A stretch of DNA of 64,000 nt from an uncultured SAR86 cluster bacterium (GTDB lineage Bacteria; Pseudomonadota; Gammaproteobacteria; Magnimaribacterales; TMED112), in contig CACATF010000001.1 in the NCBI GenBank assembly GCA_902535365.1, positions 68,077 to 132,076 on the forward strand, written 5' to 3'. Positions 24,417 through 34,591 of the stretch are shown here, in pieces; the stretch's first letter is position 1, and the number at the start of each line of letters is the position of its first letter. The translations under genes and the position numbers were made by a program. The notes beneath the pieces are model-generated. The model saw nothing but the letters and a program-made list of their open reading frames with translations. It made no database searches and was not told where the DNA came from.

Positions 24417-25775
24417 ATGGGATTAAGTATCGTAATTCTTGCTGCAGGTGAAGGCAGAAGAATGAAAACAGATAAACCAAAACCTTTGGTCAATTTAGCT
24501 GACCTCCCGCTTGTGCAATACCCGCTAAATACAGCAAAAGCGCTTAAACCAGAACGAATAGTGTTAGTAACGGGCTATAAAAAGGATGAAGTAAAAAAAT
24601 ATGTGCTTGAAAATAATGCAGGTGATTTTATTTTTTGTGAACAAAAAGAGAGGCTTGGCACCGGGCACGCTGTTAAACAAGCAGCGCCCTACTTGCCTGA
24701 CACAGGGAAAACCTTGGTTTTATATGCGGACGTTCCTTTAATTTCTACTGCAAGCCTGAATAAGCTTATTAAATCTGCACAACGCAAGAAGATCTCAATT
24801 CTTACTTCAAAAATCACAAAACCAAAAGGCTATGGGAGGATTATCAGAGACGAAAAAATGAACCCAACAAATATCAGAGAGGAAGCTGATGCATCAACAC
24901 AGGAAAAAACAATCAATGAAATTTTTACAGGCATCATGATTGCTGACAATGAGTTTTTAAAGAATGGTTTAAAAGGGTTAGTGAGAAATAATAAAGCAGG
25001 AGAGTACTATCTTACTGATTTGGTGGAGTACGCTAGTAAACGTAAGCTTCCAATTGGCTCAACAGAAGCAAAAGAGCTTGAGGTATTTGGGGCTAATAAT
25101 AAAAAAGAACTTGAAGGCCTTTACAACGCTATGGTTGCATTGAATATAGATGCAGCTAAGAAAAAAGGAACATTCTTTAAAGACACATCCACTTGTTATG
25201 TGGAGGGTGTTTTAAAAGTTGGCAAGGATGTATCGATCGGCAACAATGTCACAATTAAAGGCAATGTAGTTCTTGGTAACGATGTCTCAATAGGTTCAAA
25301 TGTAGTTCTCTCAAACACAAAGATTGGATCCAACTCGACTATTAAAGAATTTTGTTCAATTGAAGACTCGAAAATTGCTGAAAATGTGGAGGTTGGACCA
25401 TTTGCTAGGCTAAGAAATGGTGCAGTGCTTGATAGTTCAGCAAAAATTGGAAATTTCGTAGAAGTGAAAAAGTCCCGCATTGGACAAAACACCAAAGCCA
25501 ACCATCATGCTTACATTGGAGACGCCGATATAGGTAAGAAAAGCAATATTGGGGCAGGCACTATTACTTGTAACTATGATGGTGAAAACAAACATAAAAC
25601 TAAAATTGGTGACTCAGTTTTCATTGGCTCCAATTCATCATTAGTTGCACCGCTTAAAGTAGGCAAGAAGTCATATGTGGCTGCTGGCTCGGTTGTTACA
25701 TCAGATGTACCAGCTGGATCTTTAGCTTTTGGGCGAGCAAAGCAAAAAAATAAATCTAACTGGAAGAAAAAATAA
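24417..25775 (+). CDS. glmU: Bifunctional UDP-N-acetylglucosamine pyrophosphorylase / GlcN-1-P N-acetyltransferase
   Basis: N-terminal LAAGEGRRM nucleotidyltransferase fold and C-terminal hexapeptide-repeat beta-helix. Located before glmS. Confidence 0.93.
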   Translation: MGLSIVILAAGEGRRMKTDKPKPLVNLADLPLVQYPLNTAKALKPERIVLVTGYKKDEVKKYVLENNAGDFIFCEQKERLGTGHAVKQAAPYLPDTGKTLVLYADVPLISTASLNKLIKSAQRKKISILTSKITKPKGYGRIIRDEKMNPTNIREEADASTQEKTINEIFTGIMIADNEFLKNGLKGLVRNNKAGEYYLTDLVEYASKRKLPIGSTEAKELEVFGANNKKELEGLYNAMVALNIDAAKKKGTFFKDTSTCYVEGVLKVGKDVSIGNNVTIKGNVVLGNDVSIGSNVVLSNTKIGSNSTIKEFCSIEDSKIAENVEVGPFARLRNGAVLDSSAKIGNFVEVKKSRIGQNTKANHHAYIGDADIGKKSNIGAGTITCNYDGENKHKTKIGDSVFIGSNSSLVAPLKVGKKSYVAAGSVVTSDVPAGSLAFGRAKQKNKSNWKKK

Positions 25776-29929: not shown

Positions 29930-30158
29930 AGTAAGACAATTCACGGGATGGGCACTGATTATCGTCTCAACAGTACTGATGTTTGTGAGTATATTTGTTG
30001 CCACTACTGGTGAACTATTAAAAGGCGGAGGCATCTATGTGGCTAGCCAATTGACCTGGTATCCTGGTCTTGCATTATTGGGCCCAGAAATTATCCAAAA
30101 AAGCAAAGATCTATGGAATAATTTTGTTGATAAAATAAGGGGCCGCAAGAAAAAATGA
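29910..30158 (+). CDS. Hypothetical small membrane protein (82 aa)
   Basis: The ATG at 29910 is preceded by AGAGGA. Two TM spans and a basic tail GRKKK. The track start at 29895 is less likely. Confidence 0.45.
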   Translation: MTPFLTKVRQFTGWALIIVSTVLMFVSIFVATTGELLKGGGIYVASQLTWYPGLALLGPEIIQKSKDLWNNFVDKIRGRKKK

Positions 30159-30352
30159 TTTGCATCAAAACAGAAATACCAAAGGAAATATGTGACATAG
30201 ATGATGAGCTAAAAGCAATATATCACTCTCATGACACAGTATGCATCTGGGTCTTTGGCTCCCGAGAAGACAGAAATAATTTTCTTGATGAAACAGCAGG
30301 GATGAAAAAAGAAGAAAGAGAAGCACACTATTCAGAAAACTATGATCAGTAA
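30155..30352 (+). CDS. Hypothetical acidic cytoplasmic protein (65 aa)
   Basis: ATGA overlap with the previous ORF. No recognisable family. Confidence 0.4.
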   Translation: MICIKTEIPKEICDIDDELKAIYHSHDTVCIWVFGSREDRNNFLDETAGMKKEEREAHYSENYDQ

Positions 30353-31478
30353 GATTAAAAACCTCCTTTTTTTAGTATTGCTTGCCTCTTGTGGTAGTGA
30401 TTCGTCCCCCGTAAAGAACACAGCCCCTGAATTAATTGCCTTGCTTGATTATGCAATAGATGAGAACACAACAGAAGTAACTACCTTTCAAGCATACGAC
30501 GCTGACGGAGATATCATCACCTATTCAATAAGTGGCACTGATGCTGATTTATTGTCAATTGGAAGCTCATCTGGGATTCTTTCATTTATTGATCCTCCTG
30601 ATTATGAAAATCCACAGGACAATGACCTTGATAATATTTATGTTCTTACTGTAACTGCTTCAGATGGTGAGTTTGCAGTATCTCTAGGAATAATCGTCAC
30701 TATAAATGATGTGGTTGAAGGATCGGGCGGACTAAATATGCTGCTTATGGGCAATAGTTTCTTTAAGCCTTATGCAGAGAGATTTCGCGAACTAGCACTA
30801 GATGCAGAATTTTTAGAACATAAAGACACCACAGTTTTTAGAGGGGGTGATAATGGCACTCCAATTGGGTTATGGAATAATGCAGATACACAAACTGAAA
30901 TCAAACAAATTCTTGATTCTGGTGACATCCAAATGCTTGGGATGACTTGGTACTATAATGAAAATAACCCCTTATCTGGATTTACAGAATGGATAGATTA
31001 CGCTTTGCAAAACAACCCTAATATAAAAATTTTTGTATCCATACCACCCATAGATTTTCCAGTAGATTGGCAGCAAAGAGCAGAAAGTTTTGGTTATAAC
31101 AATGTAAGAGAACTATATGAGTTTGTGGTTAGTGACCTCACGCACAAGGCGGTGATTGATCAATTGCGTGAAAGATATCCGTCAACAGAAATATTCACAC
31201 TCCCAACCGGGTGGGCAACATTTGATTTGGTTAATCAATATGAAAATGATTTGCTGTTGGATGAGGTTTCTTTGTTTGGTTCTTACGATGATTCAATATT
31301 TACTGATACTAAAGGACATCAAGGCAAAATTGTTATCACCACAGGAGCCCTTATATGGTTGAGTGGGTTGTATAGTGTCAACTTAAGAACTAATGAATTT
31401 GATACAGGTTTTAACACTGATCTTCATTCAATTGCTGAGGAAATAATGGATCTACAAGACCCAAATTACAAGCAATAA
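30342..31478 (+). CDS. Lipoprotein with cadherin-like repeat and SGNH/DUF4886-like hydrolase domain
   Basis: Lipobox LLASC. The cadherin-like segment is ITYSISGTDADLLSIGSSSGILSF...YVLTVTASDG...VTINDV. The C-terminal domain has MGNSFF and a TDTKGHQG block resembling GDSL/SGNH blocks I and V. Confidence 0.7.
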   Translation: MISKIKNLLFLVLLASCGSDSSPVKNTAPELIALLDYAIDENTTEVTTFQAYDADGDIITYSISGTDADLLSIGSSSGILSFIDPPDYENPQDNDLDNIYVLTVTASDGEFAVSLGIIVTINDVVEGSGGLNMLLMGNSFFKPYAERFRELALDAEFLEHKDTTVFRGGDNGTPIGLWNNADTQTEIKQILDSGDIQMLGMTWYYNENNPLSGFTEWIDYALQNNPNIKIFVSIPPIDFPVDWQQRAESFGYNNVRELYEFVVSDLTHKAVIDQLRERYPSTEIFTLPTGWATFDLVNQYENDLLLDEVSLFGSYDDSIFTDTKGHQGKIVITTGALIWLSGLYSVNLRTNEFDTGFNTDLHSIAEEIMDLQDPNYKQ

Positions 31479-31483
31479 GAAAC

Positions 31484-31511
31484 TTACAAGATATTAAATT
31501 TGGTATATAGT
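31484..31511 (+). promoter_or_regulatory. Putative sigma70 promoter (TTACAA-16 nt-TATAGT) for the Cys-rich micro-ORF
   Basis: The -10 ends 6 nt before the ATG at 31518 and there is no Shine-Dalgarno, implying a leaderless or near-leaderless transcript. A TG at 31501..31502 could alternatively form an extended -10 with TATATA. Confidence 0.3.
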
Positions 31512-31517
31512 AAAAAC

Positions 31518-31565
31518 ATGTGTAAGTGTTGCAAATGCTGCGAGTGCGCTTGTTGCTCAAAGTAA
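31518..31565 (+). CDS. Cysteine-rich micro-ORF, 15 aa: MCKCCKCCECACCSK
   Basis: Manual translation: atg tgt aag tgt tgc aaa tgc tgc gag tgc gct tgt tgc tca aag taa. It has 8 in-phase Cys codons and is locally GC-richer than the flanks (about half G+C by my count). It lies directly upstream of the Met/His-rich barrel gene. Not in the ORF track. Confidence 0.45.
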   Translation: MCKCCKCCECACCSK

Positions 31566-31585
31566 AATTTATTAATTAAACTTCT

Positions 31586-31606
31586 AAATATTGGCGTACA
31601 ATATTT
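31586..31606. promoter_or_regulatory. Perfect 8-bp inverted repeat AAATATTG-N5-CAATATTT
   Basis: Lies between the micro-ORF stop (31565) and the barrel gene ATG (31623). It could be a weak AT-rich hairpin or a protein-binding palindrome, and it overlaps a possible TTAAAC-17-CAATAT promoter. Confidence 0.4.
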
Positions 31607-31622
31607 TAATTATTCTGGGCTT

Positions 31623-32747
31623 ATGAAAAACACAATTTCCTTACTATTTTTTTTAACAACATCAATTTGGGCATGCAGCAATCCGCAGTCTGATGGTCAT
31701 GGCTCAATTAAAAATATGCAACATGATGAGCATATGATGCACGAAGAGCATGACATGGATCATGCTGATCATATGATGATGCATGACCCGTACCCAGTTG
31801 GTGTTATGGGCAGCTTGCACCACGAAGGTTTTATGTTTTCTATCAAGCATGGGCGCATGACTATGGAGGGCAATATATTGGATGGTGACAACATAGCCAC
31901 GGCAGATATTTTGCAAATGCCAAATCCACTAGGGAACATGCCAGCAAACCTCTCAGTAGTTCCTGAATGCATGGACATGAGCATGACTATGGTTGAGGGT
32001 ATGTATGCTTTTTCTAAGGACATTACCTTTATGTTGATGGGTACATTTATGTCGAAAGATATGACGCTTAATACATTTGCACCGATGATGAATAGAGATC
32101 TGCTTGGCCAGTTCAACACATCATCTTCAGACTTATCTGAATTAACATTTAGCACTCTGTTTAGAATTGCACAGCATGGGCCATCACAATGGCACGGTGA
32201 AGTTGCCTATCAAAAATCAGTGGGAGCAAATGACCAAAAAGACACCGTCTTAACACCTATGAATATGATGATGGAAATGGTGTTGCCGTATGGCATGCAA
32301 AGCGGTGATGGTGCCTCTAGATTAATTCTTGGTATAACCAACACAAGAAAAATAAATGAAAAACTTACTTGGGGCAATCAGTTAAAAAGAAATGCTGTAT
32401 TAGATAAAAAAGATTGGTCATATGGAAATCGTACAGAGCTGAACTCTTGGCTTCAATATCCTCTTAACGAGACAGTCAACCTGTCTTCAAGACTTAAGTT
32501 TGTAAGCCAAGGCGCAATTTCTGGCAACAGCCCATTAATTAGCGCTCCCGTCCAAACAGCAAACCCGGCAAACTATGGTGGAGAAGAGCTGCACTTGGGC
32601 TTTGGGGCAAACTTCAAGCTCAATATTTTTCCAGACGGCAATGATGTGCTGGGCATTGAAATCTTAACGCCACTGATGCAAGACAAAAACAACCTACAAA
32701 TGAAAACAGACTACCAAGTTATTGTTGGGTACCAAAAAAGTTTTTAG
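31623..32747 (+). CDS. Met/His-rich putative outer-membrane beta-barrel protein
   Basis: Signal peptide with a possible lipobox (IWAC). N-terminal tract HGSIKNMQHDEHMMHEEHDMDHADHMMMHD. About 33 Met in 374 aa by my count. Amphipathic strand patterns and a C-terminal VGYQKSF (terminal Phe) are typical of OMP beta-signals. Confidence 0.7.
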   Translation: MKNTISLLFFLTTSIWACSNPQSDGHGSIKNMQHDEHMMHEEHDMDHADHMMMHDPYPVGVMGSLHHEGFMFSIKHGRMTMEGNILDGDNIATADILQMPNPLGNMPANLSVVPECMDMSMTMVEGMYAFSKDITFMLMGTFMSKDMTLNTFAPMMNRDLLGQFNTSSSDLSELTFSTLFRIAQHGPSQWHGEVAYQKSVGANDQKDTVLTPMNMMMEMVLPYGMQSGDGASRLILGITNTRKINEKLTWGNQLKRNAVLDKKDWSYGNRTELNSWLQYPLNETVNLSSRLKFVSQGAISGNSPLISAPVQTANPANYGGEELHLGFGANFKLNIFPDGNDVLGIEILTPLMQDKNNLQMKTDYQVIVGYQKSF

Positions 32748-32755
32748 AGTCTCGA

Positions 32756-33115
32756 TTGAAAAAAATTAACCTTAAATCTAAATTTTCCAAGTTTAACGAC
32801 CTCTGGTCACCAAAAGTTATTGCTGAGATGAATGATTATCAATTCAAGCTCGTAAAAATCAAAAATGATTTTACATGGCATGCACATGAAGACACAGATG
32901 AAGTATTTATTGTCATTGAGGGGAGCATGCAGATAGAGTTTGAAGATGAAACCATTGAGCTTAATGAGGGTGAAATGTATGTGGTGCCCGCAGGCAAGCT
33001 TCATAAACCTCTCGCTCCCAAAGAAGCTAAAATCATGCTAGTTGAGCCAAAAGGAGTTGTTAATACTGGCAATAAAGTTAATGAGCTAACAGCTGAAAAC
33101 GATCAGTGGATCTGA
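32756..33115 (+). CDS. Small cupin-domain protein
   Basis: 119 aa with cupin motifs WHAHEDTDEVFIVIEG and GEMYVVPAGKLHKP. TTG start 8 nt after the barrel gene stop. Confidence 0.75.
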   Translation: MKKINLKSKFSKFNDLWSPKVIAEMNDYQFKLVKIKNDFTWHAHEDTDEVFIVIEGSMQIEFEDETIELNEGEMYVVPAGKLHKPLAPKEAKIMLVEPKGVVNTGNKVNELTAENDQWI

Positions 33116-33121
33116 TGCTTG

Positions 33122-33337
33122 TTACTCAGGCAAAACAAACAAGTCCTCAACAGAACATTTAAGAGTCTTGGCTATCTTTAATGCCAAGACTGTTGATGGC
33201 ACATAAACACCATTTTCTATTGAGTTGATGCTCACTCTAGAAACCCCTGCCTTTTCAGAGAGTGCCTGCTGGGTTAAACCAGCAGACATACGAATAGTTT
33301 CTAAATTATTAAGAAGCTTTCTGTGATCTTTGCCCAA
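33122..33337 (-). CDS. XRE-family helix-turn-helix transcriptional regulator (71 aa)
   Basis: The HTH_3 pattern LTQQALSEKAGVSRVSINSIENGVYVPSTVLALKIAKTLKCSVEDLF resembles short Cro/CI-type regulators that follow small membrane proteins. Confidence 0.8.
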   Translation of the reverse strand: MGKDHRKLLNNLETIRMSAGLTQQALSEKAGVSRVSINSIENGVYVPSTVLALKIAKTLKCSVEDLFVLPE

Positions 33338-33348
33338 AGTTCGCCTTC

Positions 33349-33765
33349 TTACCTCTTTTCAAAATCTTCAACTGCCTTGTTAATCTCATCACTTTCTCTC
33401 GGATAAAGATAACCAGCAATAAGAAGCCCTATACCTATAGTGAAAACGAGGGCTCCAACACCTTTTAAGATATCACCAAAAAAAAAGATACCAAAGAGAA
33501 ACAAACCTATTCCTGTAAATGCTGTAGTTACACCATCTTTTCTGTAATCTCGAGGGCTTTTTTTATCCTCTTTAAAACTAGCCAATAAATCTTCAACAAC
33601 AGCAGGATCTTCAATGTTTTTACTCACTTCAATCATGGCATTGTATTTTTCCTTCCTTTCTTTTGCTTGGAAAGAAAAGACTATAAAAATAATAGCAACT
33701 GGTAGAAGCGCACCAATGTACGCAACACCAACGCCCAAAACTGCAACAAGATTATCTTCATTCAT
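33349..33765 (-). CDS. Membrane protein partner of the XRE regulator (138 aa)
   Basis: One N-terminal TM, a charged middle segment and two C-terminal Gly/Phe-rich TMs. AAGGAG lies 6 nt upstream of the ATG. Its stop is 11 nt before the HTH gene. Confidence 0.6.
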   Translation of the reverse strand: MNEDNLVAVLGVGVAYIGALLPVAIIFIVFSFQAKERKEKYNAMIEVSKNIEDPAVVEDLLASFKEDKKSPRDYRKDGVTTAFTGIGLFLFGIFFFGDILKGVGALVFTIGIGLLIAGYLYPRESDEINKAVEDFEKR

Positions 33766-33784
33766 TTTGCACTCCTTATGAATG

Positions 33785-33802
33785 TGTAAAGTATACCTTA
33801 CA
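33785..33802. promoter_or_regulatory. 18-bp palindromic operator, copy 1 (TGTAAAGTATACCTTACA)
   Basis: Half-sites TGTAAAGTA and TGTAAGGTA around a central GTATAC. On the minus strand it contains TATACT, a likely -10 for the membrane-protein/XRE operon. Confidence 0.6.
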
Positions 33803-33811
33803 TTTAATGAA

Positions 33812-33829
33812 TGTAAAGTATACCTTACA
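33812..33829. promoter_or_regulatory. 18-bp palindromic operator, copy 2 (TGTAAAGTATACCTTACA)
   Basis: Identical to copy 1 and 27 bp away. Its minus-strand TTTACA lies 16 nt upstream of the TATACT in copy 1, which is -35/-10 geometry. Confidence 0.6.
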
Positions 33830-33837
33830 TTAATAAA

Positions 33838-33866
33838 TTGGCACGCAAGCTATTTCGCAATAAAAT
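33838..33866 (+). promoter_or_regulatory. Putative sigma70 promoter for the dioxygenase gene (TTGGCA-17 nt-TAAAAT)
   Basis: By eye. It starts 8 nt downstream of operator copy 2 and lies about 40 nt upstream of the ATG at 33905. Confidence 0.35.
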
Positions 33867-33904
33867 TAAACTGTGGGTATGTGCAAAATTTTATTTGGGG
33901 CAAT

Positions 33905-34591
33905 ATGATTGAACAGTTTTTTGATCAATCCAGTTCGTCCTTTACTTATTTGGTCTCTTCCAGCAAGCATAATGCTTTCATCATTGATCCTGTTAAAGAA
34001 AATAACGAGATCTACATTGAGTATCTTGACCAACACCAACTCAATCTCAACTTCATTCTAGAAACCCACACTCACGCTGATCATGTCACCGGTTCAGGTG
34101 CGCTGATTGACATGTTTGGCTGCAAAACTTTTTGTGGCATGGTCTCTGATAACACCAACATTGAAACACTTCATGATGGCCAAGAAATCTTGTTAGATGA
34201 TTTAAGCATTCAGGCCATATACACACCTGGTCACACCGATGATTCTTATTCATACCTGCTCAAGTCTTCTGAAAACACTTATTTGTTTTCTGGTGACACC
34301 CTGCTAATTAATGGCTGCGGTAGAACAGACTTTCAGAATGGTGATCCTGAACAGCTCTACGATTCAATCACGCAGAAACTATTTTCATTAGACGCTGATA
34401 CCATTGTTTTCCCTGGGCATGACTACAATAATGCAACAAGCACAACTATTGCAGACCAAAAAGAGACCAACCCAAGACTAGTCAACAAATCCAAAGATCA
34501 ATTTATTGAAATAATGAATAATCTAAACTTGCCCACACCAAAACTTATGGATGTAGCGGTGCCATTAAACCTAAAACTGGGAAAAGAGTAG
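33905..34591 (+). CDS. ETHE1-like persulfide dioxygenase (MBL fold)
   Basis: Key motifs are FFDQSSSSFTYLV, HTHADHVTG, YTPGHTDDS, LLINGCGRTDFQNGDPEQLY, FPGHDY and ETNPRL, which match sulfur dioxygenase-type metallo-beta-lactamases. The track ORF (33782) is extended artificially through the operator repeats. Confidence 0.85.
   Translation: MIEQFFDQSSSSFTYLVSSSKHNAFIIDPVKENNEIYIEYLDQHQLNLNFILETHTHADHVTGSGALIDMFGCKTFCGMVSDNTNIETLHDGQEILLDDLSIQAIYTPGHTDDSYSYLLKSSENTYLFSGDTLLINGCGRTDFQNGDPEQLYDSITQKLFSLDADTIVFPGHDYNNATSTTIADQKETNPRLVNKSKDQFIEIMNNLNLPTPKLMDVAVPLNLKLGKE

Follow-up and report, generated by a model that had tools for sequence, protein, structure and literature searches.

A 64,000-nucleotide (nt) stretch of DNA from an uncultured SAR86 cluster bacterium (contig CACATF010000001.1; "the window" hereafter means this whole stretch) raises the question of what an open reading frame (ORF) of only 15 codons, eight of which specify cysteine, is doing in front of a gene for a predicted outer-membrane barrel. 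This micro-ORF starts with ATG at 31518 and ends with TAA at 31563-31565 on the plus strand, in the 144-nt gap between the stop codon of a lipoprotein gene (31478) and the ATG of the barrel gene (31623). It reads atg tgt aag tgt tgc aaa tgc tgc gag tgc gct tgt tgc tca aag taa and encodes the peptide MCKCCKCCECACCSK (15 residues, 8 Cys), with the cysteines laid out as C-x-CC-x-CC-x-C-x-CC; sequence and reading frame are exactly those described in an earlier note on this DNA. It is concluded here that the micro-ORF is very probably a translated and selected small gene, and that it represents a peptide family, unannotated before, that is common to an abundant uncultured marine bacterium and to phages. 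As for its function, we put at about one in two the probability that its product would be a mini-metallothionein, a Cys8 thiolate peptide that acts in trans and on its own, encoded in a variable island devoted to envelope, metal and thiol stress. The immediate surroundings are as follows.

31483..31511, plus strand: sigma-70-like promoter CTTACA-17-TATAGT, with the -10 hexamer ending 6 nt before the ATG.
31518..31565, plus strand: the micro-ORF, which belongs to a peptide family conserved in SAR86 and in marine phages; the identical ORF is present in the close relatives L234-L237.
31566..31622, plus strand: spacer from the micro-ORF stop to the barrel ATG, 57 nt, AT-rich, with no terminator and no unusual structure.

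Could such an ORF be an accident of base composition? The earlier note had argued for a non-random origin, and this is borne out by the fact that the in-phase motif TGYNNNTGYTGYNNNTGYTGYNNNTGYNNNTGYTGY occurs a single time in the window, even with two mismatches permitted, at an expected count of 0.00 (100 dinucleotide-preserving shuffles of the window), and by conservation of the frame in relatives. The G+C-raised segment that had been reported within an AT-rich spacer was likewise recovered, at 44% for the micro-ORF versus 21% for the remaining spacer and 36.8% for the window. No second Cys-rich leaderless small ORF (sORF) was found in the window, a scan of positions 30000-34000 against Rfam at E <= 10 returned noise only, and an NCBIfam search with the tandem-duplicated micro-ORF peptide (the single peptide having fewer than 20 residues) gave no match. 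A literature search found no description of the peptide motif strings, nor of SAR86 together with Cys-rich or metallothionein terms.

To what extent the element is conserved was addressed by scanning 80 genome loci for ORFs of at most 60 amino acids (aa) that contain 5 or more Cys and consist of Cys to at least 30%, and by searching metagenome contigs by pattern, from which about 40 low-GC marine copies were retained. Approximately half of the metagenome pattern matches were discarded as TGY microsatellites (poly-Cys frames, GC-richer and probably on eukaryotic contigs). The frame M-C-x-CC-x-CC-x-C-x-CC-(x)(K)-stop is present on the barrel strand in 18 SAR86 genome loci besides the window, and the scan for short Cys-rich ORFs yielded full-pattern copies only in SAR86 and essentially nothing comparable in the other genome loci. 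Along the lines of the search proposed in the earlier note, an intact frame was thus recovered in these 18 loci and, by pattern, in some 40 metagenome contigs, and the in-frame Cys codons with synonymous TGT/TGC variation that the same note had suggested looking for in relatives were found, both codons occurring at every Cys position of the cellular set. This set comprises 47 distinct DNA versions and 34 peptide variants (for example CKCCKCCECACCSK), all of 13-15 codons, with a stop codon that varies between TAA, TAG and TGA. The x positions hold only D/E/K/S/T/N/Q/A/P/G in the cellular set, and only D/E/K/R/S/T/N/Q/A/P/G over all 42 peptide variants, in every one of which the spacing of the eight cysteines is constant. 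Hydrophobic or aromatic residues account for 0 of approximately 30 (position, residue) states at the variable positions, compared with 35.5% ILVFMWY in the proteins of the window. A nucleotide model of the cassette, run with nhmmer over the genome loci, revealed no decayed or frame-shifted copies, the cassette being either intact or wholly absent.

The less constrained scan for Cys-rich ORFs of up to 60 aa gave the same spacing, plus one variant in which Cys2 is replaced by tyrosine. In this case (L011, 2291-2338), which comes from one single-cell genome, TAT stands at the second codon (MYDCCKCC...), whereas a metagenome contig with identical flanks (L093, 351-398) has TGT; the substitution is a rare variant or else an error of amplification or sequencing.

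How the frame is expressed in cells is indicated by the sequence in front of it. The promoter was given in the earlier note as TTACAA-16-TATAGT and is the same site under a slightly different parse, ending at 31511. A TAnnnT hexamer (TATAAT, TATACT, TAAAAT, TATATT and similar) ends exactly 6 nt 5' of the ATG in about 50 of the 54 unique cellular loci, and the stretch conserved across cellular cassettes consists of positions -19..-7 (consensus atTTaGTtTATAaT) and the ORF only, the -35 region and all sequence past the stop being unconserved between clades. A fixed distance between hexamer and ATG places the transcription start site on the A of the ATG or directly beside it, and this promoter geometry implies that the cellular mRNA would be leaderless, an idea already put forward for the window and now strongly backed by its relatives. 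In agreement with the earlier observation at the micro-ORF itself, no Shine-Dalgarno (SD)-like motif is present at the cellular loci. The missing motif alone says little for a leaderless start, because just 14 of the 62 long genes of the window have one; a -10 hexamer at the 6-nt distance is rare among the same genes (1/62). The TAnnnT hexamer 6 nt before ATG is also seen at the window genes at 24417 (glmU-like, 452 aa), 34805 and 37524, and initiation that is leaderless or does not rely on an SD may be widespread in this SAR86 genome.

A second and quite different mode of expression is found in viruses. The pattern scan of viral contigs gave 31 matches, among which 23 are ORFs of 13-14 codons of the form MC[KSTR]CCKCC[NS]C[TND]CC(E), with identical Cys spacing (one version being CKCCKCCNCTCC). 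A canonical SD sequence (AGGAG, GAGG or AGGG) lies 5-9 nt upstream of the ATG in 23/31 viral matches, and the SD-led copies amount to 13 distinct DNA versions. These phage copies carry no -10 hexamer and are located inside same-strand gene strings, in which the SD of the next gene overlaps or comes after the stop of the micro-ORF. Their neighbors match phage families, among them an HTVC008M-type 'cytidyltransferase', a primase and one NifU-like gene, and are mostly of unknown function according to PHROGs. In cultured phage genomes, blastn with two phage cassettes and 1.2 kb of flank found no copy of the ORF, the sole match being a domain common to the 'cytidyltransferase' of HTVC008M and Melnitz. 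When cellular and phage copies are combined, 60 distinct DNA versions retain start, frame, length and stop despite changes in the x codons. Two unrelated translation-start signals are thus found on one frame, which is the strongest argument of this work that the frame is translated and, with the same Cys spacing kept in -10-led cells and SD-led phages, that the constraint is on the peptide.

The genomic context of the cassette is far from constant. The first gene 3' of the cellular cassette is of at least 15 kinds, which include an MBL/HAGH_C hydrolase, PepSY_TM, MerC, HXXEE, the barrel, a 91-aa membrane protein and a NosD-like beta-helix protein, as well as TauD, a BD-FAE esterase, a methyltransferase, an SMR pump, a PNP_UDP nucleosidase, an adhesin-E-like lipoprotein and an HSDR_N/Mrr-type protein, with a stop-to-next-start spacing of 12 to about 140 nt. 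In 41 of approximately 57 loci a gene on the same strand ends 20-90 nt before the ATG, so that the cassette usually sits inside a gene string and not at the head of an operon. At one locus (L158) only convergent genes lie downstream of the cassette, and there is therefore nothing for it to regulate. The statement of the earlier note that the micro-ORF heads a barrel and cupin operon consequently holds for this lineage but not elsewhere, given the other downstream genes, the usual position in mid-string and the convergent arrangement at L158. Recurrent neighbors are MerC, PepSY_TM, HXXEE, the Met-rich barrel, a VTT/DedA protein, MBL/HAGH, a Glyoxalase_3 VOC protein, a periplasmic MsrA-Trx-MsrB fusion, glutaredoxin, a cupin and a gene pair encoding an XRE-type helix-turn-helix (HTH) protein and a DUF6249 protein, and the island around the cassette is, as far as predicted products tell, of an envelope, metal and thiol-stress flavor. 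The MsrA-thioredoxin-MsrB fusion (L009, 5904-7166; also L003, L006-L008, L010 and L012) is a 420-aa protein with a signal peptide, encoded at the end of the gene string that includes the barrel, after Glyoxalase_3, and suggests repair of oxidized Met in the envelope.

These observations can be accommodated by a mini-metallothionein in the following manner. In SAR86 the micro-ORF's own promoter would drive a leaderless mRNA that begins with, or very close to, its AUG and would read on into whichever gene comes next, in the window the barrel and cupin genes. The peptide itself would be the functional product, a cytoplasmic cluster of thiolate ligands to bind the soft metals Cu(I), Zn, Cd or Hg, made alongside MerC, PepSY_TM, HXXEE, the Met-rich barrel, the MBL/HAGH hydrolase, the periplasmic MsrA-Trx-MsrB, glutaredoxin and the NosD-like protein. 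This reading, which the earlier note had offered as its hypothesis of a minimal metallothionein-like peptide, is favored by the evidence because the Cys spacing is fixed in two expression settings and the filler residues are metallothionein-like, and because there is no set downstream gene, a stand-alone copy exists at L158, and MerC and the His/Met-rich barrel are among the neighbors; metal binding itself is what we infer.

Metallothioneins, such as the 25-residue Cu-metallothionein of Neurospora crassa or the bacterial SmtA/BmtA and MymT, are characterized by an extreme Cys fraction, CC and CxC motifs and the exclusion of aromatic and hydrophobic residues, and CCxCC is found in the alpha-domain of the mammalian proteins. 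The SAR86 peptides resemble them in carrying 8 Cys in 13-15 residues, K/S/T/D/E/N/A/G/P fillers, no signal peptide and metal-related neighbors, and the small and charged filler composition would place them with metallothioneins and apart from known leader peptides. Unlike metallothioneins, they are about half as long as the shortest established member and have no demonstrable homology to any metallothionein family, and to our knowledge neither leaderless expression nor phage-borne copies are features of that class. Methanobactin-type precursors offer another comparison, since MbnA, which is accompanied by MbnB/DUF692 and MbnC, is a small Cys-containing peptide for copper handling with outer-membrane transport genes. 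In contrast to these and other ribosomally synthesized and post-translationally modified peptide (RiPP) precursors, the SAR86 peptides possess no leader segment and no export signal, and no DUF692/MNIO, radical SAM or YcaO gene occurs in the examined neighborhoods, in line with the earlier remark that no RiPP maturase is nearby (no maturase family was present among the Pfam-scanned neighbors).

Several points weigh against a metallothionein. We know of no established member this short, the shortest having about 25 residues and coming from fungi. The search pattern partly imposes the Cys invariance seen in the metagenome and viral sets. Synonymous codons are position-specific, with Cys codons 2 and 4 being nearly always TGT and 10 and 13 nearly always TGC, Glu9 being GAG in 32/34 and Lys15 AAG in 26/37, compared with a window codon usage of 61% TGT, 66% GAA and 76% AAA. 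Although the p-values for this bias are inflated, as the sequences are not independent, it points either to an extra constraint at the nucleotide level or to a cassette that has spread recently. In one clade, moreover, a perfect 8-bp hairpin, ATTGTTGC-TCATAA-GCAACAAT, extends over the last two Cys codons and the stop. Finally, the cassette lies nearly always directly upstream of a same-strand gene, and together with the leaderless layout this resembles the Cys-sensing sORFs of mycobacteria. A more ambitious formulation, somewhat less likely than not, is that the family comprises the shortest ribosomally encoded metallothionein-type peptide (13-15 residues, 8 Cys), leaderless in SAR86 and an auxiliary gene in phages, and perhaps also a cis-acting Cys-codon sensor.

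Could sensing be the whole of its function? It has been shown experimentally in mycobacteria that polycysteine leaderless sORFs, for example Ms5788A/Rv0815A, are Cys-responsive attenuators (Canestrari et al. 2020, bioRxiv 10.1101/834739). In that system ribosomes stalled on the Cys codons keep the Cys tract from pairing with the downstream SD in a very stable duplex, the sORFs control operons of cysteine and sulfur metabolism, and their length and Cys arrangement vary (bioRxiv 10.1101/834739). A further example is uORFC-8-2, an upstream ORF (uORF) with tandem Cys codons that precedes cysS in Rhodobacterales (PMC8632094). The claim in the earlier note that no described system has this architecture has to be withdrawn in view of these mycobacterial sORFs (bioRxiv 10.1101/834739) and the Cys-Cys uORF before cysS (PMC8632094). 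The rival explanation that they suggest, which we consider unlikely but the best of the alternatives, is that the micro-ORF is a cis-acting, Cys-tRNA-sensing leaderless sORF, an element of a 'Cys ribulon' like Ms5788A. Scarcity of charged tRNA-Cys, caused by sulfur limitation or by oxidation or metal capture of thiols, would stall ribosomes on the eight Cys codons, and the stall would alter expression of the downstream cistron through shielding of the 5' end, through reinitiation or, in one clade, through a blocked hairpin at the stop codon; the diverse downstream genes would then be a regulon with a common cis element.

The layout speaks for this explanation. As in the experimentally established mycobacterial case, the SAR86 sORFs are very short and unannotated, have a geometry that would make them leaderless, stand just upstream of same-strand genes and contain consecutive Cys codons (three CC pairs and two single Cys, 8/15 codons in the window); a short uORF with tandem Cys codons in front of another gene is also what uORFC-8-2 is (PMC8632094). 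A conserved unit of promoter and ORF does precede many different genes, some of them with a link to sulfur or thiols (TauD, the PNP_UDP nucleosidase, MsrAB, MBL/HAGH, glutaredoxin), and the position-specific codon bias suggests selection at the RNA level. The hairpin is found in L003 (2075-2100) and also in L006, L007, L009, L010, L012, L013, L115, L143 and L149; in this clade the peptide ends in ...CDCCS, the 5' arm lies in the last two Cys codons, the stop is in the loop and a T-rich stretch follows. Within it, L003, L006, L007, L009, L010, L012 and L013 reach duplex z values down to -3, and the structure could be a stabilizer, a weak terminator or an attenuator.

What is missing is the structural basis of attenuation. 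Over all loci taken together, the Cys tract is not complementary to the downstream region, with a mean z of -0.36 over 70 loci against shuffled downstream sequence and +0.27 in the window, by a pairing test that is crude because duplexfold permitted very loose interior loops. The leader of the window folds no better than shuffles (z = 0.14), no terminator-like site is present on the plus strand in 31300-33400, and spacers of 12-13 nt at some loci leave no space for a switch. The clade hairpin is missing from the clade of the window, is away from the next start and, in contrast to the mycobacterial duplex, does not involve it. Cys-codon transcription attenuators, of which further candidates are reported from Actinobacteria, have conserved stems and a terminator U-run and stand before genes for Cys-tRNA or Cys metabolism, whereas the window shows no terminator or conserved structure and would have the ORF at the 5' end. 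The downstream genes also differ from the mycobacterial ones in being mostly envelope, metal and stress genes that change from locus to locus. A sulfur-starvation response is unlikely to induce a 33-Met protein such as the barrel, whose upstream 50 nt are, moreover, unchanged in a relative that lacks the cassette (L001). Furthermore, Cys spacing and hydrophilic fillers are fixed in SAR86 while they need not be in a codon sensor, which requires neither fixed spacing nor exclusion of hydrophobic residues; the phage copies are SD-led and embedded in gene strings, yet have the identical spacing; and the copy at L158 has no downstream same-strand gene. The sensor hypothesis of the earlier note is thus weakened, as the Cys tract shows no conserved pairing with the start downstream and a terminator is missing, although a cis effect that needs no structure is possible, for instance if a stalled ribosome protects the 5' end or if reinitiation is controlled. 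The architecture as such has precedents in mycobacterial sORFs, cysS uORFs and Cys-rich metal peptides, and the structural feature by which the attenuators are defined is not found in the SAR86 family.

A further alternative accepts the peptide as a trans-acting product and questions only the metal, and we regard it as rather improbable. The peptide would then serve as a thiol redox buffer or oxidant sink, as a persulfide or sulfur carrier, as an Fe-S-related ligand or as a modulator that binds a partner, and the phage variant could be a host-takeover or anti-defense factor. All the evidence for a functional peptide that underlies the metallothionein reading applies equally here, and the neighbors MsrAB, glutaredoxin and MBL/HAGH (the last of which could be persulfide dioxygenase-like) would fit, as would a hypervariable island that sometimes includes a restriction-type gene (HSDR_N/Mrr_cat). 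In one phage contig (L206, 3577-4061; IMGVR_UViG_3300030330_001955) only 8 nt separate the Cys8 ORF MCKCCKCCNCTCCE from a NifU-like Fe-S assembly gene downstream of it (phrog_8429), a possible hint of Fe-S or sulfur chemistry that is a single case. No partner gene is conserved across loci, however, and a metal-thiolate cluster is what 8 Cys among 13 residues, arranged in CC and CxC motifs, classically signify. The weakest explanation, that the element is an untranslated DNA or RNA element (a TGY-periodic protein-binding site or a small RNA) or a chance ORF, could appeal to the unusual conservation of synonymous positions but is very hard to reconcile with the zero expectation in shuffles, the maintenance of the frame in all 60 DNA versions, the two independent kinds of translation-start signal, the lack of any Rfam match and a leader fold that is not significant.

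The metallothionein reading being preferred, it may be asked in what surroundings the peptide would operate in the window itself. The neighboring features are listed here.

30342-31478, plus strand: cadherin-domain lipoprotein gene.
30344..31570, plus strand: 1.23-kb block of lipoprotein gene, promoter and micro-ORF, a clean indel relative to L001.
31623..32747, plus strand: Met/His-rich outer-membrane beta-barrel gene, 374 aa, of no Pfam or NCBIfam family.
32756..33115, plus strand: Cupin_2 gene, 119 aa, TTG start.
33122-33337, minus strand: XRE-type HTH gene, which recurs beside the cassette in other SAR86 loci.
33349-33765, minus strand: DUF6249 membrane protein gene, paired with the XRE-HTH gene.

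The barrel protein contains 33 Met (8.8%) and 14 His, with a His/Met tract near the N-terminus (HGSIKNMQHDEHMMHEEHDMDHADHMMMH), in keeping with the roughly 9% Met and the tract reported for it before. It has no Pfam match at E <= 0.01 and no NCBIfam match at E <= 1, and a sequence search of the PDB with the barrel profile yielded no relative. An AlphaFold2 model (pLDDT 72) compared by Foldseek nevertheless has a barrel fold, its best matches being FapF (5o65) and a COG4313 channel (4rl8) at a TM of about 0.72, and its structural neighbors, the 12-strand channels of the FapF/COG4313 type, confirm at the level of a predicted structure that the product of 31623-32747 is an outer-membrane beta-barrel. 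The likening of this protein to CopB/PcoB in the earlier note did not stand, as there is no Pfam CopB match and the Met/His tract is an analogy only. The family has 285 database matches at E <= 0.001 and 122 genome loci, in SAR86, Porticoccaceae, Vicinamibacterales, Parvibaculales and Maricaulis, and the homologs place the window in SAR86; over 22 diverse homologs 17 Met are invariant, and the C-terminus QKSF is conserved. In SAR86 a PepSY_TM gene, absent from the window, almost always stands before the barrel gene, and the neighborhoods of barrel homologs in Porticoccaceae and Vicinamibacterales contain no conserved partner and no Cys ORF. The cupin was correctly placed in the earlier description, the Cupin_2 gene beginning with TTG at 32756, 8 nt after the barrel stop.

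Comparison with close relatives revealed how labile this region is. The closest genome locus, L001 (single-cell genome AG-911-K08, with a barrel 93% identical), is devoid of the 30344-31570 block and retains the sequence from 31571 onward upstream of the barrel, though without the micro-ORF. In L234-L236 it is the lipoprotein gene that is missing while the identical micro-ORF is kept ahead of the barrel, and L237 has both; the lipoprotein gene is thus present or absent among strains whose barrels are 93-95% identical. Elsewhere, L008 lacks a 167-nt cassette that L009 has. This is an island of fast turnover. A mobile-element origin of the cassette or block was considered and rejected, as the junctions show short microhomology only and no terminal repeats. 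A glutaredoxin gene that the window does not have is further found in L234-L236, where it is flanked by the cupin and HTH genes.

The XRE-HTH/DUF6249 pair is oriented divergently from the cassette in L006, L007, L012, L013, L028 and L029 and convergently in L158. Between the DUF6249 gene (minus strand) and an MBL-fold gene (plus strand), the window has two tandem copies of a near-perfect palindrome, TGTAAAGTATACCTTACA, at 33785-33829, which are also found in L001 (6278-6322) and as a single copy in L028 (5843). The palindrome is operator-like and possibly serves the adjacent XRE-type HTH protein encoded at 33122-33337; a link of these repeats to the micro-ORF promoter was rejected, as they are near no cassette.

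In conclusion, gene callers skip ORFs so short, and this family is consequently missing from the annotations of SAR86 and of marine viral contigs. SAR86 is one of the most abundant heterotrophic groups of the ocean, and if the preferred reading is true, the peptide would represent an unseen part of the handling of trace metals (Cu/Zn/Cd/Hg) or thiols in the surface ocean that is common to host and virus. If it binds metal, a genome-streamlined, minimal metallothionein would be present in a dominant ocean bacterium together with a new class of phage auxiliary gene, which would matter for how Cu, Zn, Cd and Hg are cycled in the sea and for how small a functional protein can be. Should it sense Cys-tRNA instead, the mycobacterial 'ribulon' concept would be extended to Gammaproteobacteria. 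The peptide is short enough for synthesis, and the main question can thus be tested without a culture of SAR86.

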